Of a stretch of 32,000 nucleotides of DNA, positions 1 to 29,284 are shown piece after piece. The DNA lies in contig NC_016803.1 of the NCBI RefSeq assembly GCF_000189295.2, positions 2,730,001-2,762,000 on the forward strand. The letters run 5' to 3'. Position numbers and translations under genes: made by a program. Under the pieces are notes generated by a model, which was not told where the DNA came from, ran no database searches, and saw nothing but the letters and a program-made list of their open reading frames with translations. The DNA comes from Pseudodesulfovibrio mercurii (GTDB lineage Bacteria; Desulfobacterota; Desulfovibrionia; Desulfovibrionales; Desulfovibrionaceae). Each line of letters starts with the position of its first letter. The first letter of the stretch is position 1.

Positions 1-744
1 GGTCTCTTCGTTGACCATGGCCCGCTCCTCGGCCCGGACGATCAGCTCCACCACCTTCCTTTCCGAAAAGTCGCGCATGAACCGGGCGAGCTCGGCGAAC
101 AGTTTCGTCTCATCCTTGTCCAGCTTCCACAGGGGGGAGTCGAAAAGGGCGGTGTCGAACGGACCCGCGTATTCCGGAAGCAGGGCGAGGTTGAGAACGG
201 CGTTGGCGTAGTCTATGGATTGGTCTTCGGACGCGCCGCCGTCGGGAGGGGGGCCTCCGGCGTTGCGCATCGCCTCCAACCGCCGGAGGGAAAGCCGCAC
301 CGCGTCCTCCGGCGCTCTTCTCCTGAGCAGGTGCAGGGCCATGGAGGGGGTTCGTTCGATCTCCCGGCGCACGTCGGCCGAGATGCGGGGATTGGCCGCG
401 CCGAACTCCCAGGCCGCGCCGAGAAACTCGACGAGTTCCTCCTGGTCCAGTTCGTCGTCGACCGCTTCGCCGGTGCGGGGCAATCCCTCATTCCAGCGGG
501 CCATGGCCCGCAGCATGCCGCCCGCCGCTCCGGGGTCGTCCTTTGCCGCCCGCATGGCCAGCTCGAAGGAGACCTGGCCGCGTTCCGCAAGGTGTTCGAT
601 CATCTCCCCGCCGACCGCGGGCGACCAGTCGAAGACCGTCCGCACCCGTTCCCAGTCCGAGGCGGGACACAGCGTCCCGCCCAGGCTCTCGACCAGTTCC
701 TCCGCCTTGCGGCGGGCCATCCGTTCGGGGTTCACCGTGGCCAT
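1..744 (-). CDS. hypothetical protein, N-terminal 248 codons (C-terminus lies beyond the window start)
   Basis: Minus-strand frame is open from ATG 744..742 to position 1; it has no stop in the window, so it is absent from the ORF track. GGAGGG lies 6 nt upstream. The start is 2 nt after the stop of the upstream AAA+ gene. It translates as MATVNPERMARRKAEELVESLGG... with ordinary protein-like composition. No domain was recognised, and there is no DxSxS MIDAS motif in the visible part. Confidence 0.6.
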   Translation of the reverse strand, partial: MATVNPERMARRKAEELVESLGGTLCPASDWERVRTVFDWSPAVGGEMIEHLAERGQVSFELAMRAAKDDPGAAGGMLRAMARWNEGLPRTGEAVDDELDQEELVEFLGAAWEFGAANPRISADVRREIERTPSMALHLLRRRAPEDAVRLSLRRLEAMRNAGGPPPDGGASEDQSIDYANAVLNLALLPEYAGPFDTALFDSPLWKLDKDETKLFAELARFMRDFSERKVVELIVRAEERAMVNEET

Positions 745-746
745 GG

Positions 747-1835
747 TCAACCCTCCAGCGTCCTGTTGGCCCTGAGCCAGACCATGCCGGCATCGCTGCC
801 CGGGTCGTCCCAGCGCCCCTGATACCGCGCGCAGAACGAATCCTTCAGTATCTCGGGGAGCGGGTCCCCCGGAAACTCGTGCCGGTAGATCGGGTGGGAC
901 AGGAGCAGGCACGCCTCCTGGGTGGCGCGCATGCTCAGGTCCAGGTCGAGGTCCCGGTCGGTGCGGATGGCCTCGGCGACCTTGACGACCCGGCGGATTT
1001 CCCGGAGCGGGACATCGGGATAGGTCCGGGAGAGGAGCCGGGCCTCGGCTTCGGGCGGCGGGTAGTCCACCTTGAGGGGCGCAAAACGGTCGAGTTGGGC
1101 CGGATCGACCGCCGTGGTCCCCGTGAACTGGGCGCCGTTGTTGATGGCCGCTATCCACTGCACGTTCTCGGGAATGGGGATGAACTCGCCGTTGACCGGG
1201 TTGAACATCTTGCGGGTTGCGTCCAGTGCGGACATGACCCCGTTGCGGGCCATTTCCCGGCAGCGGTTGAACTCGTCCAGGAAGATCAGGAAGCGTTCGT
1301 TGCTTTCCGCCGCCTCGGTGAGCGCCCTGAGAATGTCCGTCTCCACCCAGGTGAAGGTCCGCTTGCTTTGGTCCTCGGCCGGTTGCAGGCTGGCCAGGAA
1401 ATCCGTGGGGTCGTAGACCGCGCTGCAGTTGAAGAAGATGAAGCGGACGCCCAGGCTTTCCGCGACCTTGCGGGCGAGGACCGTCTTGCCCGATCCCTGG
1501 GGGCCGTCCAGCAGGATGCTCATGCGGTTTTCGAGCAGGACCTCCAGCTTGCGCAGGAGTGCTTCCGGGAAGAAGAAGTCGTCGCCGCCGAAGCGGGCCT
1601 CGCTGAAGTGGCGGACCTCGATGTAGCCCCGGCTGGAACGGGGCCTGCCCTTGATCCGGGTGACCCGGACCCGGCACGGACTGCCCGGAACGATCGCCTG
1701 GTCGTTGCTGAGTATCACCTTCGGCGCGCGCCTGTTGCCGATGTTTTTCGCCCTGAAGCGCCACGGGCCCTGTTTCGGGTTGAGGTGGAAGACCGTGGTG
1801 AATATGCCGGGCAGCCCGGCGTTGTCGTTTGTCAT
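747..1835 (-). CDS. AAA+ ATPase, AAA_5/MoxR-like, with a ~95-aa N-terminal extension
   Basis: 362-aa ORF. Walker A is LLDGPQGSGKT (nt 1482..1505) and Walker B is LIFLDEFNR. The C-terminal region is helical. GGAGA lies 5 nt upstream of the ATG. The N-terminal region (GSPCRVRVTRIKG...GYIEV) is beta-rich and unassigned. Confidence 0.85.
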   Translation of the reverse strand: MTNDNAGLPGIFTTVFHLNPKQGPWRFRAKNIGNRRAPKVILSNDQAIVPGSPCRVRVTRIKGRPRSSRGYIEVRHFSEARFGGDDFFFPEALLRKLEVLLENRMSILLDGPQGSGKTVLARKVAESLGVRFIFFNCSAVYDPTDFLASLQPAEDQSKRTFTWVETDILRALTEAAESNERFLIFLDEFNRCREMARNGVMSALDATRKMFNPVNGEFIPIPENVQWIAAINNGAQFTGTTAVDPAQLDRFAPLKVDYPPPEAEARLLSRTYPDVPLREIRRVVKVAEAIRTDRDLDLDLSMRATQEACLLLSHPIYRHEFPGDPLPEILKDSFCARYQGRWDDPGSDAGMVWLRANRTLEG

Positions 1836-1875
1836 GCTCGTCTCCGATTGGTTGTGCGTGTTTTACGGCTCGCCG

Positions 1876-1891
1876 AGCAAAGTGCATTCCT
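1876..1891 (-). promoter_or_regulatory. weak sigma54-type promoter candidate (AGGAATGcactTTGCT)
   Basis: On the minus strand it has exact GG-N10-GC spacing and a perfect -12 TTGCT, but the -24 half keeps only GG. It lies about 40 nt upstream of the ATG at 1835 and next to an AT-rich tract. Confidence 0.3.
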
Positions 1892-2073
1892 TTTCCGCGA
1901 CGGCGAAACGATGATTCGCAACATACTGTATTTAATTGATCTATTCGCTTGCCGCCGGACGGTTTCCCGGAACGGACGCCGCCGGCTCCGAGGATGAAAG
2001 AATAACCTTGCATGCCCGGGGGCACCGTCACCGGAGGCCTGTGATGGTCCGGGATTTCAGCGGGTTGAAGAAA

Positions 2074-2089
2074 TGGCGCGCAATTTGAT
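2074..2089 (+). promoter_or_regulatory. sigma54-type promoter candidate, variant -12 (TGGCGCGcaatTTGAT)
   Basis: The -24 half (TGGCGCG) is good and the spacing is correct, but -12 reads TTGA instead of TTGC. It lies 36 nt upstream of ATG 2125, which has an AAAGGAG RBS. Confidence 0.4.
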
Positions 2090-2124
2090 TCAAGGGGAGG
2101 AAACAACAGGCAAAGGAGTTGCAC

Positions 2125-2349
2125 ATGGACAGGGATCGAGTGGATTTTTACTGCCCCAATTGCGGATACAGGCGGACCGAGCTGTTCTATGCCCCTGATT
2201 CGGACGATTTTCGGGCCGGGGATTGCCAGTCCGCCAACGGCGAACACGAGCGCAGCGTCCTGGCGGCGGTCTGTCCCGAATGCGGGCACGAGGGCTTTGT
2301 GCGCAGCCGGGAGTACCCGGGGGCGCGCGAGGCGGACCGCGATGGATAG
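2125..2349 (+). CDS. small zinc-ribbon protein (two CxxC pairs)
   Basis: 74 aa counted from ATG 2125; the track starts at TTG 2119. GGAG lies 6 nt upstream. It carries CPNC and CPEC pairs about 35 aa apart. Its stop is 9 nt before the next gene. Confidence 0.6.
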   Translation: MDRDRVDFYCPNCGYRRTELFYAPDSDDFRAGDCQSANGEHERSVLAAVCPECGHEGFVRSREYPGAREADRDG

Positions 2350-2358
2350 GCGCGAGGG

Positions 2359-3366
2359 ATGACCGCCATGCAGACCGGAAAGGGACTTGCTCCCCGCCTC
2401 GACACCTGCGTCATCGGTTGCGGGGGGTGCGGCTTCGCCCTGGCCCGGCAAACCTGGGAGCGGTCAGCGGGCCGCATCCCCGGACTCGGGATCGTCGGGA
2501 CGGCGGACGGGGAGGGGGTGCATGTCGAGGCCTGGCCGGATACGGCGTTTTCCCGGTCCCTGTCGGTCTCCCTGGCCTCGCCCGGCGGACGGCAGCCCGT
2601 GGATCTGGAGGGGCTCAAGCTCGTCCAGGTCGTCGGGAACATCGGCGATTCGGCCTTCGGTCATTGCTCAAGGCTGGTGGTGGATCGCATGACCTGGGCG
2701 GGGATACCCGTCCTGGCGAGCTGCGTCCTGCCCCGGCGGCGGGGAGAGCGGAAGCGCGCCATGCCCCGGTCGCTCAGGAGGATCGCCATGCGCGTCGGCT
2801 CGGTGTTCCTCTTCCCCGAGGGGCATGTGGAGGCGCAGCCGGGCGCGGCGGCCTGTTCCGTGCCGGAGACGGACGTCATCGTCGATCAGTTGCTCTTCTC
2901 GGCCTCGGCCGACGGCTTGTTCTTCCTGCGCGAATCCACGGCATCGCCCCGGAGGCTGTCCCATGGGCGGTACTGCGTGTATTGCCGCGTGGCGGCGGAT
3001 GACGGGTTCGAATTTTTCGGAACGCCGGGCAAGGCGCCGGGCCGGGCCGTGTTGTTGGGCGCGAGGCTGCTGGCGGTGCACCTGAACGCGTACGACCCGG
3101 ACCGGGCCGGACGCATGATCTGGGCGGCGTCGTGGGAGTCGGACGAGCCCCGCCCGGACACGATTTTCAGCACGCTGCCCGTCCCGTCCCTCGGGTACGC
3201 CCTTGCCGAGTCGGTCGTGGCCGTGGATATCGCGGACGAGGCGGCCGAGGCCTTTGTCCACGTGGAGGTGGGACGTCCGGGGCCGGTCCCCGGGGGCGGG
3301 ATACCCGACCACACCTGGACCGAGGAGGAGCTGGAGATTCCGGCGTTCCTCCGCCGTCTGGAATAG
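2359..3366 (+). CDS. divergent FtsZ/tubulin-like protein with degenerate GTP-binding loops and a retained FtsZ C-terminal peptide
   Basis: 335 aa; an alternative start at ATG 2368 has better RBS spacing. CVIGCGGCG (2407..2433) aligns with the FtsZ T1 loop VIGVGGGG. LVQVVGNIGDSAFGH...IPVLASCVLPRRRGERKR aligns by eye with FtsZ MVFIAAGMGGGTGTG...ILTVAVVTKPFNFEGKKR. The C-terminus EELEIPAFLRRLE (3334..3357) matches the FtsZ tail DIPAFLRK. Confidence 0.7.
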   Translation: MTAMQTGKGLAPRLDTCVIGCGGCGFALARQTWERSAGRIPGLGIVGTADGEGVHVEAWPDTAFSRSLSVSLASPGGRQPVDLEGLKLVQVVGNIGDSAFGHCSRLVVDRMTWAGIPVLASCVLPRRRGERKRAMPRSLRRIAMRVGSVFLFPEGHVEAQPGAAACSVPETDVIVDQLLFSASADGLFFLRESTASPRRLSHGRYCVYCRVAADDGFEFFGTPGKAPGRAVLLGARLLAVHLNAYDPDRAGRMIWAASWESDEPRPDTIFSTLPVPSLGYALAESVVAVDIADEAAEAFVHVEVGRPGPVPGGGIPDHTWTEEELEIPAFLRRLE

Positions 3367-3402
3367 CGGTGGCGGCGGGTTCGGCGTTCGTTCCGGCATT
3401 TC

Positions 3403-3432
3403 CCGGCCGCCTCGATGACGACGGGCGGCCGG
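3403..3432. terminator. GC-rich hairpin between convergent genes (possible bidirectional terminator)
   Basis: CCGGCCGCC (3403..3411) and GGCGGCCGG (3424..3432) form a 9-bp perfect stem with a 12-nt loop. No U-tract follows on either strand. Confidence 0.3.
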
Positions 3433-3487
3433 ATGACTGGGGGACGGAGTCCCGAGGGCCCATGGAGGCGGCCCGGAGGGGTCCGTC

Positions 3488-3835
3488 TCACCGGTTTCGC
3501 TCCCCCGGCGTCGCCGGAGGGCCGTCGTCCTGTCCGTTCGCCGGGATCGGCGGGGCGTCGGGATGATCGGTGAAGGGACGCCATCCGCCATCGAGCAGCA
3601 GGAGACAGGACCAGCACTCCTCGCGCAGGATGCCGATGGCCCGGCCCAGCATGGTCGCGAAGTCGAGTTCGCTCATGCCCAGGCCCTTGATGAGGCCGGA
3701 ACGGCCGTACCGGTCGTCGCTGGCGACGACCGTGAGCATGGCGATGTCCGTGATGCCCCATTCATCGGCGAGATAGCTTCTCCGTGGCTCGCTCAGGTCG
3801 GGCAGGCGGTCCAGGCGCAGTTCGGGGGCGGTCAC
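3488..3835 (-). CDS. hypothetical protein (115 aa)
   Basis: GTG 3835..3833 overlaps the TGA of the upstream gene (GTGA), which suggests translational coupling. The core looks protein-like (SYLADEWGITDIAMLTVVASDDRYGRSGLIKGLGMSELDF...WSCLLLLDGGW). The longer 169-aa form in the track has an Arg/Gly/Pro-rich N-terminus that overlaps the upstream gene. Confidence 0.5.
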   Translation of the reverse strand: MTAPELRLDRLPDLSEPRRSYLADEWGITDIAMLTVVASDDRYGRSGLIKGLGMSELDFATMLGRAIGILREECWSCLLLLDGGWRPFTDHPDAPPIPANGQDDGPPATPGERNR

Positions 3836-4320
3836 AGCTTCGCTTCCTCCCCGGCGCCGGTCGAGGAATCGAGTCCCCTGAGGGCGGCTTCGATCTCCTC
3901 CTTGAGGCGCTCCCTGGCCCGGATGTCGTGGAGCGCCGTGGCCAGGTCCTCCACGACCCGCTCCCGCTTGGCGCCGTCCAGCCAGAACGGGAGCCACTTG
4001 CCGTCAAGCCGTTCCGCGTTGTCCGGGCTGTCCAGGACAACGCACATGTGCCGCATTTCGTCGGTGAGCCGGGCCTTGAGGGCCTGGATTTCCTCGAGTT
4101 GCGTCCTGAGCCTGGACAACTGTTCGATGCGCCGGCGTATCTCCCCTTTCAGGAGGACGATGCGTATGCCGGACCGGAGGACCTCCGACCGGATGGACTG
4201 TTGCCGGTCGAGCAGGGAGGACGATGCGGCCGCCGTGGCGGCCTCAACCCGCCATTCCCGCGCCAGGACGGCCCCGGCCACGAGAAGGCAGACGGCCAGA
4301 GTGAACAGGACGGTCCTCAT
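3832..4320 (-). CDS. secreted or membrane-anchored coiled-coil protein, paralogue of 16053..16559
   Basis: 162 aa with an N-terminal hydrophobic signal/anchor (MRTVLFTLAVCLLVAGAVLA) and a heptad-like charged helical body. It carries the motif KWLPFWLDGAKRER at nt 3958..3999. Confidence 0.8.
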   Translation of the reverse strand: MRTVLFTLAVCLLVAGAVLAREWRVEAATAAASSSLLDRQQSIRSEVLRSGIRIVLLKGEIRRRIEQLSRLRTQLEEIQALKARLTDEMRHMCVVLDSPDNAERLDGKWLPFWLDGAKRERVVEDLATALHDIRARERLKEEIEAALRGLDSSTGAGEEAKL

Positions 4321-4478
4321 CTCGATCCCTCCCGTCGCCGCAATCCGCTGCCTCCGCGAACGGACGTTGCGGTGCGCCTGCGGGGGGCCGGAGCGTCCCG
4401 GTCCCTCCGGGGGATGCCGCCGGGATCACGGCCCGGCGGACACTCGATGTTCCCTTGAACCACGGTGCAACGGTGCAT
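4317..4478 (-). CDS. possible 53-aa leader ORF translationally coupled to 3832..4320
   Basis: ATG 4478 is preceded by AAAGGAGGAG. Its TGA overlaps the ATG of the next gene (ATGA). The product (MHRCTVVQGNIECPPGRDPGG...RRREGSR) is Arg/Pro/Gly-rich, so it may be only a 5' UTR that happens to be open. Confidence 0.25.
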   Translation of the reverse strand: MHRCTVVQGNIECPPGRDPGGIPRRDRDAPAPRRRTATSVRGGSGLRRREGSR

Positions 4479-4515
4479 GGCTCCTCCTTTTGCGTCGTCG
4501 TCTTTCGTCGGGAGC

Positions 4516-4531
4516 AGCAATAGCCATGCCA
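4516..4531 (-). promoter_or_regulatory. sigma54 promoter (TGGCATGgctaTTGCT)
   Basis: Near-perfect match on the minus strand to TGGCACG-N4-TTGCW. It lies 38 nt upstream of the RBS/ATG at 4478 and directly downstream of a ~70-bp AT-rich tract (4537..4605). Confidence 0.75.
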
Positions 4532-4686
4532 GGGGAGTTGATTGATTTATGTCGAGTATATCATATTGAATTTATGAGCTATTCATTGTCTGCACAAAAA
4601 AATGGAGCCTGGCGGGTGTGAGGCGGCGCGTGATGCCGGAGCAACGCGTGTGACGCCGGATCAGCGGCGCGGGCGACCCGGTGGGG

Positions 4687-5169
4687 TCATTCGTCCGCCG
4701 GGCCGAGCAGCTCCAGGACGACCTCGTCGATGAGCAGGCCGAAGTCGTCCGCGCCCTGGTTGAGCATGGCGAGGGTGTACGGGTCGATGGGTGTTTCGGC
4801 CGTCACCTGCGCGATGACGTCCTTGAGGGATTCGCCGCCGAGCTTGAGGTCCATGAACATGACCCGCCATTCCTTGAGAAAGGCGGGGTCCTTGGGCGTG
4901 GTGTTGCGGAAGATCGTGCGCAGCATGTGGAGCGTGTCCATCAACCGGACGAACTCCTTGGCGGAGGTGGCCACGACGCACAGCCGCATTTGGTCCATGT
5001 TGGAGAACCGCACCGTGGACTTGGCGTTTTCATAGAGCTCGAACCCGATGCTCGACATCTTTTCGTCCATGGACATCCGGTTGAGGGCTTCATCCGAATA
5101 TCCCTGCCCGAAGGCCGGGAGGACCGACATGAAACACGTGATGAGCAGTGTGAGGATGGTTGTCTTCAT
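4687..5169 (-). CDS. secreted hypothetical protein (160 aa)
   Basis: ATG 5169 is preceded by AAGGAA. The signal peptide is MKTTILTLLITCFMSVLPAFGQG and the mature part is helical. The extra 30 codons in the track lie upstream of the RBS. Confidence 0.75.
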   Translation of the reverse strand: MKTTILTLLITCFMSVLPAFGQGYSDEALNRMSMDEKMSSIGFELYENAKSTVRFSNMDQMRLCVVATSAKEFVRLMDTLHMLRTIFRNTTPKDPAFLKEWRVMFMDLKLGGESLKDVIAQVTAETPIDPYTLAMLNQGADDFGLLIDEVVLELLGPADE

Positions 5170-5504
5170 TTGCGTTTCCTTGGGCGATGCGCCCGCTTGC
5201 GGCTCGTGAGGGATCGGACCGCCGCCCACCCGGAGAGAACGCATGCCGGAGCGGCCCAACGGTATCGCCTTGTTTCTTCATCCTGTTTCGCAATGAACGG
5301 CCACTCCGGCCCGTCTCTCCGTTGCGCGGGCCGGGTCGTCCCCTGCGGCGGCCGGGTCGGGCAAGGCCTTGGAGGCCGCCCTTGTGAGCATGGACCCGAT
5401 GCACGGCGGGCCGTGTGATGTTTTTACTCACGCCCGAACGATGCTCGAATAAAATTAAACAATAAAACCATAAAGTTAATCTTGCAAGCCCCTGTCGTCT
5501 CGCC

Positions 5505-5520
5505 TGGCATGGCCCTTGAA
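5505..5520 (+). promoter_or_regulatory. sigma54-type promoter candidate, variant -12 (TGGCATGgcccTTGAA)
   Basis: Perfect -24 half and correct spacing, with TTGA at -12. It lies 81 nt upstream of ATG 5601 and is preceded by an AT-rich tract (5446..5483). Confidence 0.45.
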
Positions 5521-5600
5521 AGAACAGGGTCGTTTCCCGGTCTCCTTATGCATCGGGAGTGCCAATTCACGGGTATCGAAGCACTGTGGGAGCTGCGTTC

Positions 5601-7799
5601 ATGTCATTCATGCTTTCCAACTCGACCTTCTCGCTGAAGGAGTACGGCCTGGTTTCCGAAGACGATCGGTTCGCCATGGGAATGGCCTGCGGCTGGTTGA
5701 AGAACCTTCTGCGCTCGGGGGTCAATCTCGATTCGTCCATGCTGAGGCTGCTCGGCTGGATACACAACGGCGCGGAAGAGGCCATCTGCCGGGTCGCCTG
5801 CGAGCGGTGCGCCGTCCGGCCCGCCTTGCGGAAGAACGGCGAAGAGTTGGCCGAGGCCGAGGACCGCGACGCCAGACTGTTCGTCTTCGACAGGATCATG
5901 GCCCTCGCCCATGGCGAGCTGCGTCTGGCCGTGCGCAAGGCCGCATTGGAGATGCTGTCCCGGGTCGATTTCCATCCTGATCCGGACATGCACCTGGTGC
6001 GCGCCATAACCAATTTCCAGAAGGTCTTCGATCTGAGCGAGCTGGAGACGCGGCTCTGCCTCTTTCTCTACGTCCTCGCCACCTGGAGCGAATGCGAACA
6101 GTATTTCGAGGACACGTTGAAGTGCAACGGCAGGACCAACCATACCGTCCTGGCCATCCTGCTCGACACCAGCCTCTTCAAGCTGCGCCGGGTCATGAAT
6201 GGGAAACTGGACCGGCTGGCGATCCTGGAAAGGAACATCAGCGGCCGGGTCGTCTTCAACTCCCTCTACAGCCGGTTCTTCGAGGACTGCGAACCCGAGC
6301 GCGTGGCAGAATCCCTTTTCGAGACCCTCGCCGGCAATCCCGTGCCCCTCGACGAGTACATCCTGGATGCCGGGGACCGGGAGTGCATACTGGAATTGTT
6401 GCGGAACGCCGGCGACGTCCCGACCCACATCCTGCTCCATGGCGTGCCCGGCGCGGGCAAGACGAGTTTCGCCCACTCGCTGGCGCACGCCCTGGGCGTT
6501 CCGGCCTACAACGTGCCCATCTCCCGGGGCAAGGACGACATGCCCCGCGCCACCGGAATCGAGGCCTGCCTGAACATGACCAACGGCGGCAGGAACGCCC
6601 TTGTCATCGCGGACGAGGCCGACGTCCTGCTGAACACCCTGCGCGGGTATCTCCTGTCCGGAGAGCGCCAGGACAAGGGGTGGCTCAATGAGTTGCTCGA
6701 GCGGCCGGGGGTGCGCATCGTCTGGATAACCAATTCCATCGAGGACGTGGAGGATTCGGTCCTGCGGCGCTTCTCGTACAACATGAAATTCACCCCGCTG
6801 ACGGCGGCGCAGCGGGAGGTGCTCTTCGACCGGATTTTGCGGAAGCACAAGGTGAAGAGCCTGGTGCCGTCGCGGGAGATCCGGGGCCTGGTGAGGGAAT
6901 ACCCCGTGTCGGCCGGGGTGGTGGACCTGTCGGTCCGTCAGGCCCGGGCCATGTGCGGTCGGGACGCGGGGCGTTTCGTCCGGACGCTGCGCCGACTGCT
7001 GGCCGCCGCGCAGAGTCTTGCGGAGGACCGCGCACCCGGCGGAAAACGGTTCGAGATGGAAGAGGGCTACTCCCTCGACGGACTCAACTTCGACACCGAC
7101 ATCAAGGCGCTCATGCGCGATCTCGAACGGTACGACGCGTACCTGAAGTCCGGGCGCAACGACCTGATCCTCAATCGCAACGTCCTGCTGTACGGTCCCC
7201 CCGGAACGGGCAAGACCGCGTTCGCCAAGTACGTCGCCTCCCGTCTGGGACGGCGGCTTCTCGTCCGGCGCGCCAGCGACCTGCTCTCCAAGTGGGTGGG
7301 CGGGACCGAGGAGAATCTCGCCCGGGCCTTTGCAGAGGCCGAACGGGAAGGGCACGTGCTGCTCGTGGATGAGGCCGACAGCTTCATCTCTTCGCGAGAC
7401 CAGGCCATGCATCGTTGGGAGATCAGCCACGTCAACGAATTCCTGACCCAGATGGAAACCTTCCGGGGCATCCTCATCTGTTCGACCAACCGGGCCGACG
7501 AGCTTGACGCCGCTTCCCGGCGACGCTTCACCCACAAGATACGGGTCGATTACCTGACCCGCCATGGGAACCTGGTGTTCTTCGACAAGATACTCGGTCC
7601 GTATTTCCGGGGAAAGCTGAATGGCGCAGCCAGGTCCCGCCTGGCCGGACTGGCCGACGCCGCGCCGGGCGATTTCAAGGTGGTTCGCGACAAGATCGTC
7701 CTGGAGCCCCGAGGGACGTACAGCGGCGAACGGTTGTTGCAAATGCTCGAAGAGGAGGTCGCCGCCAAGCGGCGGAGACGGCCCTGTATCGGATTCTAG
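5601..7799 (+). CDS. tandem AAA+ ATPase (two P-loop modules) with an unknown ~270-aa N-terminal domain
   Basis: 732 aa from ATG 5601, with GGGAG 8 nt upstream. D1 has Walker A GVPGAGKT (6441..6464) and Walker B LVIADEADVL. D2 is a classical AAA module: GPPGTGKT (7194..7217), Walker B LLVDEADSF, and ILICSTNRADELDAASRRRF. Confidence 0.9.
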   Translation: MSFMLSNSTFSLKEYGLVSEDDRFAMGMACGWLKNLLRSGVNLDSSMLRLLGWIHNGAEEAICRVACERCAVRPALRKNGEELAEAEDRDARLFVFDRIMALAHGELRLAVRKAALEMLSRVDFHPDPDMHLVRAITNFQKVFDLSELETRLCLFLYVLATWSECEQYFEDTLKCNGRTNHTVLAILLDTSLFKLRRVMNGKLDRLAILERNISGRVVFNSLYSRFFEDCEPERVAESLFETLAGNPVPLDEYILDAGDRECILELLRNAGDVPTHILLHGVPGAGKTSFAHSLAHALGVPAYNVPISRGKDDMPRATGIEACLNMTNGGRNALVIADEADVLLNTLRGYLLSGERQDKGWLNELLERPGVRIVWITNSIEDVEDSVLRRFSYNMKFTPLTAAQREVLFDRILRKHKVKSLVPSREIRGLVREYPVSAGVVDLSVRQARAMCGRDAGRFVRTLRRLLAAAQSLAEDRAPGGKRFEMEEGYSLDGLNFDTDIKALMRDLERYDAYLKSGRNDLILNRNVLLYGPPGTGKTAFAKYVASRLGRRLLVRRASDLLSKWVGGTEENLARAFAEAEREGHVLLVDEADSFISSRDQAMHRWEISHVNEFLTQMETFRGILICSTNRADELDAASRRRFTHKIRVDYLTRHGNLVFFDKILGPYFRGKLNGAARSRLAGLADAAPGDFKVVRDKIVLEPRGTYSGERLLQMLEEEVAAKRRRRPCIGF

Positions 7800-7921
7800 G
7801 CGGCGGGTCCCGGAACGGCTCGGCGGTCTTTGCGTCGCCGCGGGATAGAAAATTCTTGATTATCAGGAGCTGGATTGTCTAGTTTGTTTCTAGAGAACGC
7901 TCAAACCGGTCTGGTGGAATT

Positions 7922-8188
7922 ATGAAAGTAGATGAAATACTTGAGAAAATAAGCACAGATGTCGACCTTGAGAAGGATGTCAACATCCTGGGCAAACCGA
8001 TCAAACGGTTCCTGAAGGCCGCCCAGGAGGAAACGGGCCTGGGTGCCCTGGAGATTCTTGAGAGTGCGCGCGGGCATCTGGTGACCGGTGATTTCCTTGT
8101 GCTGACCATTTCCGGCAAGGATTTCGTCTATTTCCTCTCCGAGGACGAATACCTGGTGGACGGGATGGTCTTCGAAAAGGGCAAGTAG
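7922..8188 (+). CDS. small acidic hypothetical protein (88 aa)
   Basis: ATG follows GGTGGA. Composition is protein-like (MKVDEILEKISTDVDLEKDVNILGKPIKRF...). It has lower GC than its neighbours and lies 122 nt downstream of the AAA+ gene. Confidence 0.6.
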   Translation: MKVDEILEKISTDVDLEKDVNILGKPIKRFLKAAQEETGLGALEILESARGHLVTGDFLVLTISGKDFVYFLSEDEYLVDGMVFEKGK

Positions 8189-8333
8189 CGTTCTCCCTGC
8201 CGCTCGGCGGGGCCGGGGCCGGTCGTTCGACCGCCGTCCGTCCCGCAAGCGGCCCACAGGCCGCGCCGCCGCGGCGTCCCGTTGCCGGGCGGTTGTCTCC
8301 GGCATTCCCCTCGCCATACGGACGGATCGCCTT

Positions 8334-8407: not shown

Positions 8408-11400
8408 TCAGTCCCGAGGCCCGAAGTATGCGGACAGGCAGCCGTTGAGGTGATTTTTCACGGTTCGCGACAATCGTTTGATCCCCAATATGTTCGCCAC
8501 GTCTCGGACCCTGTCGTCACTGGCGGCGAGTCCCGGATGGGCGGCGATGAGCCCGAATATCTCGTGCCGGGAGATCTCGGTGGCGCTTCGGCCCTCTATG
8601 GAGCGGAACGGCACGGTTTCCCGGCAGCTCCCCGGAGCCCAGATGAAGGTCGTCCCGGCCTCCGGGCGGCGTTCTTTTCCGTCCAGGCAGGCATCGATCC
8701 GCTCCCTGATCCTGGCCCCGGTCCGTTTCCATCCATGGGCCTTGCAGATGGTCCGGGCCAATCGGTTGGCCTCGATGGGCCCTTCGGCTGCGACGAGAAC
8801 GTCGATCATCCGGGCCAGGATCGGGGTGTAGTCGGGGTCGAAAAACCGGTTCGCGTCCGGCTGGACCGGCCGGTTGACGGCGGCCTCTTCCTCCGGGGCG
8901 TCCGCTGAAGGCGTTTGCTCCGGTTCCGCAGGGGCGACCGTTTCCGGGCCCACCGGATTCGGGGACAGGTCCTCCGTCCGCCCGATTCCGGCATGGAGCC
9001 GCCGTTGCGGGGCGGGCGGGGCGACCGTCGGGCCGGCCATGCCGGCGGCGAGCCCACGGGGAAGGTCTGGCCATTCCCGCCGCGCCTCCGAACGGCTCTC
9101 GGCCCGGGCCGCTTCCTCCTCCTCCCGCCGCCGGGACGCCTTGAGCAGTCCCTCCAGTTCCTCATGCACCCGTTGCAGCGCTTCGGACGGATTCATGAAC
9201 CAATCCGCGGACCAGATGCGGAGGATGTTCCATCCGAGATTGCGCAGCACGGCCTCGCGGATTTCGTCGCGGTCCCGGGCTGTTGCGGAATGATGGTAGG
9301 TCGCGCCGTCGCACTCGACGCCCGCGAGATAGGCCCCGGCATGGTCGGGGTGGACCACTCCGAGATCGATCCGATACCTGGAGACCCCGATCCGGGGCCG
9401 CACTTGCCACCCCCTGGCCTCCAGGGCCGCCATCACCGCCTCTTCGAACGGGCTCTCGGCATCCTCCGTCGAATCGGCGTTCATGGCGGGCAGGGCGATC
9501 GGGCCGTTCTCGGCGTACTCCAGGAAGTTCTTGAGATGGGCCACGCCGAGGGCGTTGGTCCTGGAAGTATCCATGTCGTCGGCGTCGATGGAAGAGAAAA
9601 CGTGCATCTCGCGGCGGGCCCGGGTCACGGCGACATTCAGGCGTTTTTCGCCGCCGTCGCGGTTCAATGCGCCGAAGCTCATCGACATCTTCCCGGCTCC
9701 GTCGCGGCCGAAGGTGACGGAGAAGCACATGATGTCGCGCTCGTCTCCCTGGATGTTCTCCAGGTTCTTGACGATGACCGGCTCTTCCCGCTCGTCGCTG
9801 AAATACCATTCCAGGTCCGGGTTGGACCGCCTGGCCTCGTCGAAGAGATTGAGGATCAGTTCCTGTTGCTGGATGTTGAAGGTGATGACCCCGAGCGTGG
9901 GACGGTCCCCCTCGGGCCGTTGGAGCCAGCTTTCCAGGCGCGATTGGGCGAAGCGCACGATCTCCCGCGCCTCCTCAAGGTTGGTGCGGCCCGTTCCCCG
10001 CGCATAGGTCCCTTCGTTCCTGTGGAGGACCAGGGCCTTCGATTCGGTCGCGGGCGATGGAAAGGTGATGAGTTCGCCGTGGTAATAATGGTGGTTGGAA
10101 AAGGCGATCAGCGACTCGTCGCGGCTGCGATAGTGCCAGTTCAACCGGATCGGCGGCAGGCCCGCCGCATCGGCCTCCTCGAGAATGCTCGGCAGGTCCT
10201 TTTCGTATTCGGCCAGGTCCTCCGCATCCTCGTCGTCGGTGCGGCCGAAAAAGTTGGTGGGGGGCAGCTGTTTCGGGTCGCCCACGATGATGGATTGCCG
10301 CGCCCTGGCGATGGCCCCGACCGCATCCCAGGTCGTGATCTGCGAGGCCTCGTCGAAGATGACCACGTCGAACTGCGTTTGATCGGCAGGGAGATATTGC
10401 GCCACGGACAGCGGCGACATCAACATGCACGGCGTCAGCTTGGTGAACGTGGTCGGCATGCCTTCGATGAGTTTGCGGATGGAGAGGCTCGGCCGTTGCA
10501 GGCCGAGCTGGTGGCGCAGCAATCCCAGCTCGGACCGGCGGGGCACGGCGTTCCTGGTGGGCAGGTCATGGGAGACATTCCTCAGGACCTGGTCGGCGGC
10601 CAGCGCCCGCACCGTTCTGTCGCGCCGCCTGAATTCCTTGATCAGGTCCTCGTGGGACCAGTGGCGGAAACCCCGGAGTTCGGAGCTGGCGTCCAGGGCC
10701 AGGGGCAGCCACCATGTGAAGTAGGCCGCGCGGAAATCGGCGCGGGCATCCTCTATCTCTCCGTCCCGGAGGGCGTCCAGGAAGGCGCCGAGCCCCAGCG
10801 TCCTGGCCTCTTCCCTGACGGCCGCCCATCGGGTCCAGTCCGCCAGTTGCGCCCTGTGGTCGACGAGGAGGCGGAGGTCCCCGGCCAGGGCCTCCAGGGA
10901 GGTCGCGTGCGGTTCGCCCCCGGCGTGGGCCGAGTAGGCGTCGCGGGCGTCCTGGAATCTCGCCAGCGCGGAGTGGAACTTCTCGGCCAGGAGCGCCGCC
11001 TCGGGTTTGTCTCTCCGGAGCAGGGCCTCCAGCGTGTCCGCGAAACGATTTGCATCCGAGGCGTGCCGCCGCACATCGTCGAGCGCCCGCTGCAGTTTTT
11101 CCGTCTCTCTCAGATAGGCGGCGACCTGGGTTCCGTCGGTGTCCTCGTGCCGGAAGACCGGGAGGTTGGCCAACTCGCTCCGATCGACGGTTTCGAGATT
11201 GTCGCGGAGCCGCCTCAGGGGCTCTATCTCACCGGCCACGTCGACCCTGCCGTCCGTTGCGTAGCCCTGGAGCAGACGGGTGACCCGGCGGCGCGCCCAG
11301 GCGGAGAATGGCCACATCCGGGCGTTGGCCTCCCGCCATTGCCGGTCGATGTCCTCTATGGGGAGGCGCCGCAATGCGGAGTTTTCGTAATCGGCCGACA

Positions 11401-14281
11401 AGCCGGAGCGCGCCTGGCGGATGGCGGCGATGGCCGTGTCCAGGGACGCGGCGGCCTCTTCCAGGCGGCCCAGTTCCGCGTCAACGACGTTGCCGTAGTC
11501 CTGCTCGGAGGAGATTCGGCAGACTTCGTGGAAGCGGCGCAGGCTGTCGATGCGTTCGGGATCGTTTTCCCCGGCATCGGGCAGGCCGATGCAGTCGGCC
11601 AGGGCGTCCGCCGCCTCCTTGAGCGGGGGGATCGCGGAAAGGACGCCCTCGGCGCGCTCCATCAGGTCGTTCTCCCATCGGTACGACCATTCCCTAGCCC
11701 CGACGCTGTCGAATCCCCGGCAGTCGCGGACGATGGGGTAGACCCTGGCGGCCCGGACGGCCGTGTCCTCCAGCCTGGCGAACATGGCCGGATCGTGCGC
11801 TCCGGGGTTGTCGAATGTAACCGTGAATTCTCGGCGACGGCCCACCGCCATCCCGATGGCCTGGAAGATGCTGAAGCCGTGGCTGCCCGGGGCGTGCAGC
11901 TGCTCGACGTATTCGTTGAGGCGGTCGCGCGTTTCCCGGAGCCGCTCCGTCTCGCTATGCCAGGCGTTCGCGGAATGGGCTTCGCTCCGTTCCCAGGCGG
12001 CCCCCAGCTGCGCCAATACCCGTTTGCGGTTCGCCTTGTTGGAGTGGAGTTCGAGGCAGACGCTGCCCAGTCCGTAGGCCTTCAGCCTGCGGTAGACGAC
12101 GTCGAGGGCCGCGGCTTTCTCCGCGACGAAGAGGACGCGTTTCCCGATGGAAAGGCATTGGGCGATCACGTTCGCGATGGTCTGGCTCTTCCCGGTTCCC
12201 GGAGGGCCGATGACGATGAAGTCGTATCCCTTCATGGCGGCCACGACCGCGGCCAGCTGCGAACTGTCCGCGGGCAGGGGCGTCAGGAGTTCCCGGGGGG
12301 AGACGTTCTTGTCGATCTCGTCCGGGATGGGGAGGCAGGCCCCGCCGCACGCCTGCTCGAAGGGCGTTTCGGGCGAATCGATGAGGTGCTTGACCAGGCG
12401 GTTGTTTTTCAGGTCGTCGGTCCGGTCCACCAGGTCCTTCCACATCAGGTACTTGGCGAAGGAGAAGGTGGAGAGGGCCGCATCCTCCACGACTTCGAAG
12501 CCGGGGACGTCCCGCACGGCCCGGCGCATGCGGTCGAAGATCGCCGGAACGTCTATGCCCGCGTCATCGACGGGGAGTTCCCCCTCGAGCGACTGGACCT
12601 TGAGCCCGAAGTCCCGTTGCAGGAATTGCAGGAGCGTGGCGTTGATGCGCACGTCGTCCTCGTGGTGCGTCAGCGAGAAATGGGATCGGGCCGAGCTGCG
12701 TTTGAGCGTGACCGGGAGCAGCAGGATCGGGGCCCGGCAGCTCGTCGGATCGGTTTCCGTCTTTTTCCACCTGAGGAAGCCGACCGCGAGATAGAGGGTG
12801 TTGGCGCCGCCCTCGATCATTTCGCTGTTGGCCTTGCGGTACAGGGTGACCAGGCGGTTGCGCATGTCGTTCCCGGTGAGCGGGATGCAGAGCTGTCTGC
12901 GCTCCAGGGCGTTTTGGGCGAACTCCTCGTGTATGTCCTTCCCGTGCTGTCGGCGGTAGAGCTCCGGGTCCCGCGCGCCGATGGGATTTTCATCCTTCAG
13001 GGAAATGATCCGCAGGGCCTTTCCTTCCGCCAGCATGTCCTCGAGTTCGGGCAGATTCGGACAGAGCACCGGCACGGTCTGCCTGGTGTCCCTGAAATTG
13101 AGCAGCCGGTTGCGCAGGGTCAGGTCGAGCAGTTTCCGCTGCCAGCGGTCGATCCTGCCCTGAGGCGTCCGCGGGGCCTCGTCCACGATTTCGCCCGGCA
13201 GCAGCCCGAAGTCCGGCTCGGGGGGCAGCGCCGCCGGAGCCGTTTCCTCGATGGTTCCGGCTTGCGCCCGTTCCGTCTGGTGCGAGGCCAGGGGCGTGAT
13301 GCCCGCGAAGCGGGCCCGCCGGATGTCAACGGCCCGTTCGAAGTCGGTCTCGTTTCCCTCGCCGAGCTGGGCCTGGGCGTTCCGGACCGCCTGGGCGAAG
13401 TCCGCGACTGGGCGCGTCGTGACGAGGGTCGTCTCGAAGGCGATGAATTCCCGCGCGGCAATGGCCTTCCGGAGTTCGACCACGTCGGGCTCCTCGATGG
13501 AAGGCAGGGTCTTGTCCGTGAGCCATACCCCGGCGAAGGCGTGTCCCTTGGTGAAGATGACGACCGGGTTGAGCCCCGCCGCCTCCAATGCGCCGGCGAA
13601 AAGCAGCGATCCGTCCAGGCAGGTGACGAGCCCTTGGTCCAGAATCCGTTTCGGGCCGCGAATCTTCTGCCCGGTTCGCTCGAACGAGGCCGGAGGCTCC
13701 GCATAGCTCAGGGTCATCCCCGTGACGGCCGACCAGATCGCCGCCGCGAGCATGTAGGCGCGTTTGGGGTCCCTGCTCTGATAGCCGTCCAACGCCCCCT
13801 TCCGGCCGCTTGCCTCCAGCAGCATGCTCGCCCGCTTGCAGATCCCCGCCACGGCCGGATCGTTGGGCGAGACGAAGGCCGCGAGGATGCCCGCCATTTC
13901 CCCGACGCCGCCCCATTCGTCGCGGGCGAGCAGCCGCAGGGGCAGCGTCCGTTCCGCCAGGACCGCGTCCCCCCGCCTCAGCCGGAAGTCGAGCTGCCCC
14001 TGTTCCGCCTCGTCGAGGCCGTCGAAAAAGGCGAAGTCGCTCTCCAGCCGCAGATCGGCAAGGGAGACCTCGTCATAGGCGCCGATCCTGTCGATGACCC
14101 AGGTCTTGTCTCGGCAGAATCGGGGATGGGGATCGAGTTCCAGGGTCAGGTCGTCAAGGGGCTCGTCCGAGGTGTTGCGGATCGTGATGCTGCGCAGGAT
14201 GGGCACCATGTTTTGCGCGGAGGCGTGGTTGACGCATTCAGCGTAGGCGATGTGCAGATCCGGGGTGGTCGGTCTATCCAT
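8408..14281 (-). CDS. 1957-aa multidomain protein: transglutaminase-like N-domain, DUF4011-like region, Upf1-type SF1 helicase, Vsr/DUF559-like endonuclease fold, DUF3320-like C-terminus
   Basis: GAGGGGG RBS. A Cys/His pair sits in LVTCLDGS...TKGHAFAGVW (Cys codon about 13619..13621). Helicase motifs are IGPPGTGKSQT (12185..12208), VVIFDEASQ, IIVGDPKQLPP and RLNVAVTRARREMHVF. The nuclease-like block is RGWQVRPRIGVSRYRIDLGVV...GVECDGATYH...LRNLGWNILRIW (about 9182..9415). An acidic/Pro linker is followed by YTPILARMIDVLVAAEGPI... Confidence 0.95.
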   Translation of the reverse strand: MDRPTTPDLHIAYAECVNHASAQNMVPILRSITIRNTSDEPLDDLTLELDPHPRFCRDKTWVIDRIGAYDEVSLADLRLESDFAFFDGLDEAEQGQLDFRLRRGDAVLAERTLPLRLLARDEWGGVGEMAGILAAFVSPNDPAVAGICKRASMLLEASGRKGALDGYQSRDPKRAYMLAAAIWSAVTGMTLSYAEPPASFERTGQKIRGPKRILDQGLVTCLDGSLLFAGALEAAGLNPVVIFTKGHAFAGVWLTDKTLPSIEEPDVVELRKAIAAREFIAFETTLVTTRPVADFAQAVRNAQAQLGEGNETDFERAVDIRRARFAGITPLASHQTERAQAGTIEETAPAALPPEPDFGLLPGEIVDEAPRTPQGRIDRWQRKLLDLTLRNRLLNFRDTRQTVPVLCPNLPELEDMLAEGKALRIISLKDENPIGARDPELYRRQHGKDIHEEFAQNALERRQLCIPLTGNDMRNRLVTLYRKANSEMIEGGANTLYLAVGFLRWKKTETDPTSCRAPILLLPVTLKRSSARSHFSLTHHEDDVRINATLLQFLQRDFGLKVQSLEGELPVDDAGIDVPAIFDRMRRAVRDVPGFEVVEDAALSTFSFAKYLMWKDLVDRTDDLKNNRLVKHLIDSPETPFEQACGGACLPIPDEIDKNVSPRELLTPLPADSSQLAAVVAAMKGYDFIVIGPPGTGKSQTIANVIAQCLSIGKRVLFVAEKAAALDVVYRRLKAYGLGSVCLELHSNKANRKRVLAQLGAAWERSEAHSANAWHSETERLRETRDRLNEYVEQLHAPGSHGFSIFQAIGMAVGRRREFTVTFDNPGAHDPAMFARLEDTAVRAARVYPIVRDCRGFDSVGAREWSYRWENDLMERAEGVLSAIPPLKEAADALADCIGLPDAGENDPERIDSLRRFHEVCRISSEQDYGNVVDAELGRLEEAAASLDTAIAAIRQARSGLSADYENSALRRLPIEDIDRQWREANARMWPFSAWARRRVTRLLQGYATDGRVDVAGEIEPLRRLRDNLETVDRSELANLPVFRHEDTDGTQVAAYLRETEKLQRALDDVRRHASDANRFADTLEALLRRDKPEAALLAEKFHSALARFQDARDAYSAHAGGEPHATSLEALAGDLRLLVDHRAQLADWTRWAAVREEARTLGLGAFLDALRDGEIEDARADFRAAYFTWWLPLALDASSELRGFRHWSHEDLIKEFRRRDRTVRALAADQVLRNVSHDLPTRNAVPRRSELGLLRHQLGLQRPSLSIRKLIEGMPTTFTKLTPCMLMSPLSVAQYLPADQTQFDVVIFDEASQITTWDAVGAIARARQSIIVGDPKQLPPTNFFGRTDDEDAEDLAEYEKDLPSILEEADAAGLPPIRLNWHYRSRDESLIAFSNHHYYHGELITFPSPATESKALVLHRNEGTYARGTGRTNLEEAREIVRFAQSRLESWLQRPEGDRPTLGVITFNIQQQELILNLFDEARRSNPDLEWYFSDEREEPVIVKNLENIQGDERDIMCFSVTFGRDGAGKMSMSFGALNRDGGEKRLNVAVTRARREMHVFSSIDADDMDTSRTNALGVAHLKNFLEYAENGPIALPAMNADSTEDAESPFEEAVMAALEARGWQVRPRIGVSRYRIDLGVVHPDHAGAYLAGVECDGATYHHSATARDRDEIREAVLRNLGWNILRIWSADWFMNPSEALQRVHEELEGLLKASRRREEEEAARAESRSEARREWPDLPRGLAAGMAGPTVAPPAPQRRLHAGIGRTEDLSPNPVGPETVAPAEPEQTPSADAPEEEAAVNRPVQPDANRFFDPDYTPILARMIDVLVAAEGPIEANRLARTICKAHGWKRTGARIRERIDACLDGKERRPEAGTTFIWAPGSCRETVPFRSIEGRSATEISRHEIFGLIAAHPGLAASDDRVRDVANILGIKRLSRTVKNHLNGCLSAYFGPRD

Positions 14282-21644: not shown

Positions 21645-21660
21645 AGCAGGAGGCGTGCCA
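21645..21660 (-). promoter_or_regulatory. sigma54 promoter (TGGCACGcctcCTGCT)
   Basis: On the minus strand the -24 half (TGGCACG) is perfect, the spacing is exact and -12 reads CTGCT. It lies 27 nt upstream of ATG 21618, with AGGAGG in between. An AT-rich tract (21664..21713) lies immediately upstream. Confidence 0.8.
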
Positions 21661-23309: not shown

Positions 23310-23706
23310 GGTTGCTGTGGAAAGGGGAGGTTCCATTTAATTGCCTGGAATTATGAGTAGTGTTGCATGAGGCGAGCGCGCTGGAGCCCCGGGGGAAGCC
23401 CGGAATCCGGCGCAATGGGAGCGGACGGGCTCACACGGTTCCGGGGCGTGAGGATGGACGGGTGGGCCGCGTGCCCGTTTCCGGGGGGGCGTTCGGTGCG
23501 GAGGGAGCGGGCCGCCTCAGGCCGCGGCGGCCGGGGCCATGGCCTTGCGGGGATGAAGCCTTGTCCGGATGCTCCGGTTCATCGCATGGGGTTGTCGGCC
23601 TTGGCTTTCTTGACTATGTTCGACCAACCTGCTTGCGCGAATCGATAATGTTGCACATGGTTTTCGCTATCGCGGCCCGGTGCGCAGGCGGCATGGAGAG
23701 GGGGGT

Positions 23707-28219: not shown

Positions 28220-29284
28220 ATGAGTTTTCTATGCAAAAAATTCATGCAGGGTTTTGATAGGACGTATCTTTCCATCAAGAATAAGCACAAGACATGCAGC
28301 CTGCATCTGAACCCCGACCCCTTCGACGGGCGGGTATACACCATCGACGAATTCTACGAGGGATATAAGAAGTATTTCGACGATCCGTTGGGTTTCTACA
28401 ACGATTACGCCCCCGAGGACGGCATATGCCTCCGGGACGGTCGGCACCACCGGGACACGTCCGAAGCCCAGGCCCCTTTCCGCTACATGGTGTTCGATTC
28501 GCCGGTCCCTTCGCCGTGGGAGGAGAACAACCTGGTGCCGTTCAAGTGGTTCACCAACCCGGAAAAACCATCCCGGACGCTGTTGCTTTTCGCGCCGGGA
28601 TGGGGACGGACCAGCCAGTCCTTCGAGGAGGTCTGGTGCCGCAAATTGCAGGAGATGGGGGTCGATTGCGGCCTGACCACCGTGCCGTACCATCAGGCGC
28701 GCACGCCACAGGGCTCGTTCTCCGGGGAGTACTGGATCAGCGCGAACCTCTTTTTCACCATCGCCAACTTCCGGCTCTACACCGCGGAGTTGCGGCTGCT
28801 GTTCCAATACATGAAGCGGCGGTATGACTACGTCGGGTTCATCGGCATGAGTTCCGGCGGGTTCCAGACCGCCCTGGCGGCCAATTGCGAACCGGCGGAC
28901 TTCCTGTTCCCGATGATCACCGGCGGGAACCTGGCGGACATCACCTGGGACGGACTGATAACGACCTACGTCCGGCAGGACCTGGAGGCCAAGGGCGTGA
29001 CCCGTGAGCAGCTCGCCCGGGTCTGGAGCGTCACCGACGAGTGCGTTCTGGGCAGGCACTGCAAGGCCCGGTACATCAAGCAGTACATCTCCATGTACGA
29101 CGAGGTGGTGGGGACCGAGAATCAGCTGGCCATGTGGGAGGCCATCGGCAGGCCGGACAGGATGATGGTCCCGTCCGCCCACTACTCCGTGTATTTCTTC
29201 GGCAACCGGATCCTCAGGGACATCGCCCGCATGGTGGCCGAGAACGTGGCCGGGTGGAGCCGCTCCCCAGGGTCGGCGGCCTAG
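28220..29284 (+). CDS. alpha/beta-fold hydrolase (354 aa)
   Basis: ATG 28220 is preceded by AGGAA at 5 nt and lies 13 nt after the NTPase stop. The nucleophile elbow is GMSSGG (28844..28861). The upstream 84 codons in the track overlap the NTPase gene. Confidence 0.85.
   Translation: MSFLCKKFMQGFDRTYLSIKNKHKTCSLHLNPDPFDGRVYTIDEFYEGYKKYFDDPLGFYNDYAPEDGICLRDGRHHRDTSEAQAPFRYMVFDSPVPSPWEENNLVPFKWFTNPEKPSRTLLLFAPGWGRTSQSFEEVWCRKLQEMGVDCGLTTVPYHQARTPQGSFSGEYWISANLFFTIANFRLYTAELRLLFQYMKRRYDYVGFIGMSSGGFQTALAANCEPADFLFPMITGGNLADITWDGLITTYVRQDLEAKGVTREQLARVWSVTDECVLGRHCKARYIKQYISMYDEVVGTENQLAMWEAIGRPDRMMVPSAHYSVYFFGNRILRDIARMVAENVAGWSRSPGSAA

Follow-up and report, generated by a model that had tools for sequence, protein, structure and literature searches.

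Lambda Kil, DicB and CbtA are division inhibitors of phages and prophages, accessory proteins associated with mobile elements that interfere with Z-ring function and target the FtsZ polymer, MinC/ZipA or MreB; to our knowledge, none of them has been described as carrying the C-terminal tail of FtsZ. This tail is important for the interactions of FtsZ with FtsA, MinC and ZipA, and extreme C-terminal fragments comprising E. coli FtsZ residues 354–383 inhibit growth in vivo (PMC10769210). Divergent proteins of the tubulin superfamily that are encoded outside division clusters, FtsZl1 and FtsZl2, give significant HHpred matches to FtsZ, keep the GGGTG(S/T)G loop, and have a proposed role in membrane remodelling together with further genes of island-like type (Makarova and Koonin 2010, PMC2875224). 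Here we analyze a 32,000-nucleotide stretch of the Pseudodesulfovibrio mercurii genome (contig NC_016803.1, positions 2,730,001 to 2,762,000; hereafter the window, with positions counted from its first letter), in which an initial annotation had recognized a zinc-ribbon gene followed by a gene for a presumed GTPase-impaired FtsZ paralogue with an intact FtsZ tail. The second gene of this pair, which we call the orphan gene, is real and its product ends in a peptide that matches the FtsZ tail, but the remainder of the protein carries no FtsZ-family sequence signal, and the same peptide occurs on unrelated proteins encoded by viruses.

The orphan gene lies on the plus strand at positions 2359–3366 and specifies 335 amino acids if translation begins at the ATG at 2359. 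More likely, however, the product has 332 amino acids and starts from the ATG at 2368, which was picked by two independent gene callers and has the better ribosome-binding spacing: GAGGG at 2354–2358 on the same strand, the likely ribosome-binding site, is situated 9 nt 5′ of this ATG but 0 nt from the ATG at 2359. (Residue numbers throughout follow the 335-residue version.) In a window with a guanine-plus-cytosine (GC) content of about 65%, the GC content of the orphan open reading frame (ORF) at the three codon positions is 0.70/0.54/0.875, a pattern that is the same as in well-supported neighboring genes and unlike that of the overlapping frames. A close relative for comparison is available in L142, a 5.7-kb Logan contig that is collinear with positions 134–5827 of the window at 96.4% identity. 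The orphan ORF is intact in L142, without indels, and differs by 19 synonymous and 16 non-synonymous changes, yielding a ratio of non-synonymous to synonymous substitution rates (dN/dS) of 0.30, where about 9 synonymous changes would be expected under neutrality. Intergenic DNA is merely 91–94% identical between the two sequences and is thus less conserved than the orphan ORF. All 16 amino-acid changes fall within residues 79–304, such that the first 75 and the last 31 residues of the 332-residue product are unchanged, an arrangement whose probability by chance is about 0.002 in a calculation made post hoc.

Because of the codon-position pattern, the intact frame in L142 and the excess of synonymous changes, the orphan ORF is a real gene under purifying selection. 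Spurious long ORFs are common at 65–70% GC, and several overlap the orphan region, which could have meant that this ORF is merely another long open frame in GC-rich DNA. That explanation is effectively refuted: the overlapping frames lack the coding-type composition, the number of synonymous changes is about twice that expected for neutral sequence, and the ORF is better conserved than the intergenic DNA that flanks it. The gene pair is known so far from only these two closely related genomes.

The initial annotation had aligned the orphan protein with FtsZ by eye, and the strings that it quoted are all present where it had placed them. VIGCGGCG (residues 18–25, positions 2410–2433, plus strand) forms a strand followed by a GxGxxG glycine-rich loop and was likened to the FtsZ T1 loop; GDSAFGH (residues 96–102, positions 2644–2664, plus strand) was equated with the tubulin signature loop T4; and IPVLASCVLPRRRGERKR, residues 116–133, was read as the stretch following T4. 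The search with a hidden Markov model (HMM) that had been named beforehand as the test able to refute this assignment returned no FtsZ/tubulin signal for the orphan protein. There is no Pfam match to PF00091 or PF12327 at E≤1. Our own FtsZ HMM, built from 12 sequences (four diverse FtsZ proteins, from M. jannaschii, M. tuberculosis, T. maritima and B. subtilis, which were checked against entries in the PDB, plus eight gammaproteobacterial sequences taken from genome loci), gave the orphan protein –0.7 bits when run with --max, and 15 of 1000 shuffled sequences scored as well. Five other six-frame fragments of the window outscored it on the same model. The HMM alignment covers just a 10-residue piece around VIGCGGCG and 12 residues of the tail, and hhalign against FtsZ extends over 8 columns with a probability of 5.6%. 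VIGCGGCG is the sole segment of the core that was aligned by both hmmsearch and hhalign, and its resemblance to T1 is equally that of a generic Rossmann fingerprint. In the region corresponding to PF12327, a BLASTP comparison with E. coli FtsZ produced a single piece (E = 0.42).

A further comparison, in which the core of the orphan protein (residues 14–307) was aligned globally with the FtsZ core profile, scored –57, against –98±15 for shuffled sequences; this score was reached by one of 300 shuffles and by none of 46 windows drawn from other real proteins. With the GxGxxG segment removed, the score was matched by 40 of the 300 shuffles and by five of the 46 real windows. Because the global score is ordinary without that segment, collinearity with FtsZ, including the T4-to-S5 alignment on which the paralogue assignment had drawn, is not above chance. 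Moreover, two of the 16 residues that differ in L142 (C103F and L106R) lie in the supposed T4/H4 stretch. The tubulin signature, searched as [SAG]GGTG[SAT]G, is absent from the whole orphan protein, as are the tripeptide NTD and the T7 motif NxDxxD that holds the catalytic Asp; even the looser pattern [NG].D..[DE] occurs nowhere in it. GDSAFGH occupies the position that had been equated with GGGTGTG, and no profile method aligns this region. A six-frame check of the window for frameshifted remnants of FtsZ found none. With no Pfam, HMM, phmmer or hhalign signal beyond noise, the orphan protein is not demonstrably a homologue of FtsZ or tubulin and is without FtsZ-family signal in its sequence; and because the testable defining features of that superfamily failed, we do not file it there.

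Searches for relatives of any kind were similarly barren. A k-mer and HMMER homologue search (with a word index of 5.8 billion clusters) and an exhaustive phmmer search of 1.84 billion representative proteins each matched the orphan protein to itself only. No relative was found in a scan of genome contigs or by tblastn against plasmids, phmmer against PDB sequences returned only noise, and there was no family match in Pfam, NCBIfam, PADLOC or PHROGs; these family-model scans also detected no DNA-binding domain. AlphaFold2, run without homologues, yielded no usable model, with a predicted local distance difference test score (pLDDT) of 32 for the full length and of 32 for residues 1–160. Two further readings of the N-terminal segment were considered and set aside: a lipoprotein signal at VIGC was rejected in that the segment before it is charged, and a SAM-methylase or NAD-binding Rossmann interpretation of GxGxxG was without profile support.

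Unlike the core, the C-terminus of the orphan protein resembles that of FtsZ to a degree above chance. Residues 322–335 (positions 3322–3363, plus strand, followed by the stop codon at 3364–3366) read EEE-LEIPAFLRR-LE, an acidic run followed by an FtsZ-type peptide, whose core LEIPAFLRR (positions 3331–3357) occupies residues 325–333 of 335 and ends two residues from the C-terminus. The string EIPAFLRRLE that had first drawn attention to the tail corresponds to residues 326–335, and its match to the conserved FtsZ tail is borne out: the FtsZ HMM places it in its own tail columns, and in BLASTP against E. coli FtsZ the only notable piece was LEIPAFLRR against LDIPAFLRK, with 7 of 9 residues identical. 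The gammaproteobacterial FtsZ tails that we collected have the form ...DYLDIPAFLRKQAD. The tail sequence of the orphan protein, EEELEIPAFLRRLE, fits the motif [DE]-[IV]-P-x-[FY]-[LM]-[RK] with acidic residues before it, and it comes after a Pro/Gly-rich stretch, GRPGPVPGGGIP (residues 305–316, positions 3271–3306, plus strand), which is presumably a flexible linker; this stretch was recognized by its composition, AlphaFold giving no structure for it. A loose regular expression for FtsZ tails matched this site only in the 59,089 six-frame residues of the window. No nucleotide of the tail differs in L142, which is weak evidence between sequences this close. LEIPAFLRR is identical to the FtsZ consensus and has the form that the conserved C-terminal peptide of FtsZ takes in proteobacteria.

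The distribution of this peptide extends beyond FtsZ. Viral contigs in IMG/VR were scanned with a back-translated DNA pattern of L[DE]IPAFLRR, two scrambles of the same codons serving as controls. The true pattern occurred at 43 viral loci compared to 4 and 10 for the scrambled versions. None of the 43 carriers is an FtsZ, all of the ORFs scoring below 9 bits on the FtsZ HMM. The six residues preceding the motif contain on average 2.1 acidic residues at the viral loci but only 0.4–0.5 in the controls, and the motif is situated within 25 residues of the C-terminus at 17 of the 43. Most of the carriers that could be assigned to a family are DNA methylases, among them MT-A70 methylases of 264–638 amino acids, a 780-residue open frame of the MT-A70 family, and an N6_N4 methylase of 560 amino acids. 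Other carriers are small, including a 103-residue Cys-rich protein that ends in EEPEYLEIPAFLRRNDD (L086 and L092) and proteins of 110–140 residues that end in LDIPAFLRRQ (L114 and L085); in some others the peptide is N-terminal. Pseudomonas and Xanthomonas phages encode relatives of the Cys-rich protein that are similar to its N-terminal part, and most of them match without the tail.

Methylases among loci L085–L127 (L104, 600 amino acids; L090, 460; L102, 560; and L088, 264) carry ...DDGLDIPAFLRR... in Pro/Ala-rich tails; the peptide in them is identical to the proteobacterial FtsZ tail and is separated from the C-terminus by either a few residues or about 105. By eye, several of the methylase carriers look ParB-like at the N-terminus, and other viral carriers have tails resembling AT-hooks or histone H1. 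The small phage proteins at L112, L111 and L193 are of unrelated types and have the FtsZ-like tail at their ends. A scan for the RK variant of the peptide returned mostly an artefact, a conserved DNA element that is read as FDIPAFLSKA in tiny ORFs of about 27 codons on many viral contigs (L143–L214) and that is probably non-coding or an RNA, for example an attachment site or a tRNA-like element. The same scan also recovered a CsrA-like protein of 67 amino acids that ends in PLDIPAFLRKQAD, which is exactly the end of E. coli FtsZ.

When the orphan protein was compared by BLASTP to the viral carriers, a search limited to those proteins, the longer alignments were weak (best E about 0.01) and all ended at the shared motif. 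In that there is no credible similarity outside the motif, the peptide behaves as a portable module, and it is portable across unrelated proteins. Because the tail occurs on unrelated phage proteins, its presence is no evidence of descent from FtsZ. A broader possibility, which we regard as rather doubtful, is that mobile elements have time and again attached the tail peptide of FtsZ to unrelated proteins, such as the orphan protein, phage DNA methylases, and small zinc-binding and CsrA-like proteins. As natural mimics of the FtsZ tail, these would thereby be connected to the host receptors for that tail, and could either localize at the membrane or divisome or bring division to a halt. No description of an FtsZ tail on a non-FtsZ protein was found in the literature, in a searchable library that is incomplete and whose silence amounts to absence of evidence only.

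Compared with the systems described above, the orphan protein has an N-terminal strand and glycine-rich loop that could equally be the generic Rossmann fingerprint, and it resembles FtsZ itself in a globular part of about 300 residues and in a tail that follows a linker and stops two residues from the end. It is unlike FtsZ in lacking profile-level similarity and the motifs GGGTG[ST]G, NxDxxD and NTD, and in being encoded outside the division and cell wall (dcw) cluster by a gene known from two near-identical genomes. Unlike FtsZl1 and FtsZl2, it has neither an FtsZ profile match nor the signature loop, and the exhaustive phmmer search, which should have reached those families from the orphan protein, found nothing. 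In proposed mode of action there is a parallel with the isolated C-terminal fragments of FtsZ, in that a free copy of the tail would occupy sites on FtsA, ZipA or MinC; however, those fragments are artificial pieces of FtsZ, whereas the tail considered here is the natural end of an unrelated protein of about 300 residues whose docking is predicted. With lambda Kil, DicB and CbtA it would share an accessory, mobile-element-associated role in interfering with the Z-ring, but it has no sequence relation to them. The viral carriers share the identical peptide L[DE]IPAFLRR/K. In most of them it is preceded by an acidic run and by a stretch rich in Pro/Ala/Gly, and in many it stands at the very C-terminus; their folds and sizes differ.

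We tentatively favor a model in which the orphan island protein docks on FtsZ-tail receptors such as FtsA, and is thereby either localized to them or placed in competition with FtsZ. The gene pair is a two-gene unit whose products are the small zinc-ribbon protein and a soluble protein of about 332 amino acids. The latter ends in a modular arrangement of Pro/Gly linker, acidic run and LEIPAFLRR, and its tail would act as a portable docking peptide. Binding would occur in the pockets where the tail of FtsZ is normally held, first among them that of FtsA, and depending on the host perhaps also those of MinC, ZapD, ZipA, SepF or ClpX. Two outcomes can be envisaged: the orphan protein might be recruited to the membrane or divisome, or it might titrate the FtsZ tethers such that division is delayed when the gene is expressed. 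Competition for these tethers, which the initial annotation had also suggested, is plausible from the tail, the one feature that argues for it. The receptor binding, the effect on division and the role of the zinc-ribbon partner are what we infer; the gene, its tail and the recurrence of that tail on viral proteins are what we observe.

Some features of the locus might instead be explained if the orphan protein were a highly diverged, GTPase-dead paralogue of FtsZ that has kept only the fold and the tail. Its globular part has the length of an FtsZ core, its strand and glycine-rich loop are as far from the N-terminus as T1, its order of core, linker and tail is FtsZ-like, and the global core alignment exceeds nearly all shuffles and every window from other real proteins. 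Nonetheless, this advantage disappears along with the GxGxxG segment, and phmmer matched the protein only to itself among representatives in which FtsZ should abound. Neither the Pfam models, our FtsZ HMM (on which other fragments of the window do better) nor hhalign provided a signal, the tubulin signature, NxDxxD and NTD are all missing, and C103 and L106 have changed between near-identical strains. Furthermore, the combination of linker and tail, which might seem diagnostic of FtsZ, also occurs on proteins of unrelated folds. Taken together, these observations make such a paralogue quite improbable. Alternatively, the tail could be a coincidental match at the end of a protein with some unrelated function in the island: the match is short, the rest of the protein gives no pointer to cell division, and scrambled patterns still find 4–10 matches in the viral collection. 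But by our own estimates, the loose motif is expected about 7×10⁻⁸ times per residue (given residue frequencies) and about 10⁻³ times per genome at C-termini, and here its surroundings are the right ones, with a linker and an acidic run on its N-terminal side and the end of the protein close by. Given also that the real motif is 4–10 times commoner than its scrambles in viral DNA, we consider coincidence unlikely.

It might also be that the tail is functional but serves another purpose, as a degradation tag (ClpXP) or as a handle for a DNA-associated or replisome partner. Reportedly, going by the title of one study, one ClpXP recognition site is at the C-terminus of FtsZ. A DNA-associated partner would suit the viral carriers, most of those assignable to families being DNA methylases and others having AT-hook-like or histone-H1-like tails by eye. 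However, no DNA-binding domain is detectable in the orphan protein, and the receptors of the FtsZ tail documented in the literature consulted are the divisome proteins FtsA, MinC and ZipA (PMC10769210). We consider a purpose of this other sort improbable. The docking model, too, has evidence that weighs against it. Many of the phage proteins bearing the motif act on DNA, and a partner other than FtsA is possible; a match of nine residues can still arise by coincidence; and since the gene is known from just two genomes that are very close to each other, little weight attaches to the tail being conserved, there being a probability of 0.21 that the last 31 residues would stay unchanged by chance.

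The other member of the pair, the zinc-ribbon gene (positions 2125–2349, plus strand), runs from an ATG at 2125 to a TAG at 2347–2349 and encodes 74 amino acids with two CxxC knuckles, CPNC and CPEC. The Shine-Dalgarno sequence AAGGAG at 2113–2118 on the plus strand, 6 nt 5′ of the ATG, is kept in L142. The product matches many zinc-ribbon models, all below threshold, and a search with it gave one non-self match, the orthologue P0122 on L142, at 97% identity; dN/dS relative to L142 is 0.29. Both the reality of this CxxC...CxxC gene and its tight linkage to the orphan gene, with 9 nt between its stop codon and the second ORF, were thus correctly recognized at the outset. The sigma54-type element that was reported to precede the pair is only partly upheld. 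An imperfect sigma54-like element, TGGCGCGCAATTTGAT, is present at 2074–2089 on the plus strand with the GG at –24 and the correct spacing, but its dinucleotide at –12 is GA and not GC, and the exact pattern TGGC-N8-TGC does not occur 5′ of the gene pair. This block is conserved in L142, a relative too close for its conservation to be informative. On the other side of the pair, the RNA fold 3′ of the orphan stop codon is not significant (z = –1.4), and scanning the window for Rfam families and tRNAs returned nothing.

As had been noted at the start, the context of the pair is not dcw-like: the neighbors are a MoxR-like ATPase, an IetA-like ATPase, a PDC-S37/Hhe helicase and similar genes, and the pair sits in an island whose genes resemble those of defence systems and mobile elements, rather than in a division cluster. 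Upstream and divergent from the pair is the MoxR-like AAA_5 ATPase (positions 747–1835, minus strand; dN/dS 0.07 relative to L142), which has relatives of about 60% identity in many phyla. Downstream of these there is always a gene for a HEAT/vWA protein of about 1200 amino acids (L001–L004), and the genes upstream of the ATPases differ in the three neighborhoods examined. Because the partner of this ATPase is the downstream HEAT/vWA protein and its upstream genes vary, it is not functionally tied to the pair. In the window, the gene that follows the ATPase runs off the left edge, and its N-terminus was without similarity to one HEAT/vWA partner. Three small genes on the minus strand, at 3488–3835, 3832–4320 and 4687–5259 (115, 162 and 190 amino acids), are convergent with the pair and match no family. 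There is an overlap of 4 nt between the first two, and all three are conserved in L142 with dN/dS of 0.3–0.6, the third being called there with another start, as 160 amino acids.

Beyond these lies a double-AAA protein of 746 amino acids (positions 5559–7799, plus strand) that matches models of the IetA/IteA anti-phage ATPase at twice their length; no protease partner was recognized for it. After a low-GC patch at about 7800–8300, a nuclease-helicase of 1957 amino acids with DUF4011, AAA_11, AAA_12 and MTES_1575 domains (positions 8408–14281, minus strand) matches PADLOC PDC-S37 from end to end and is of the PDC-S37/Hhe type. Megablast of the window against plasmids matched one helicase fragment and nothing else. 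Further along the island are a PcfJ-like protein, an SLT transglycosylase, MotA/ExbB and ExbD-like proteins, and a sigma54 activator (positions 29281–30627, minus strand), as well as an ORF of 1508 amino acids (positions 23680–28206, plus strand) that has a clear coding signal and a faint NACHT-like match only, and could represent an uncharacterised kind of STAND NTPase. The pattern TGGC-N8-TGC is enriched in the window (12 matches observed and 6 expected). Sigma54-type promoters of this form at 4517–4531, 5550–5564 and 21646–21660 on the minus strand are cleaner than the element of the pair; they lie in front of the convergent small minus-strand genes described above and of the string of TPR, MotA-ExbB/ExbD-like and SLT genes.

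If its tail is inert, then this locus contributes one more orphan gene pair in an island. But if the tail docks on FtsA or on other receptors, the orphan protein, while not being an FtsZ itself, would be a natural competitor or hitch-hiker of Z-ring anchoring. Alongside the phage proteins, it would then point to a general strategy by which mobile elements address the divisome through a peptide of nine residues. Such proteins would supply researchers of cell division with new natural probes of the FtsZ-tail binding sites, and would give phage biologists a simple sequence signature of candidate division modulators.

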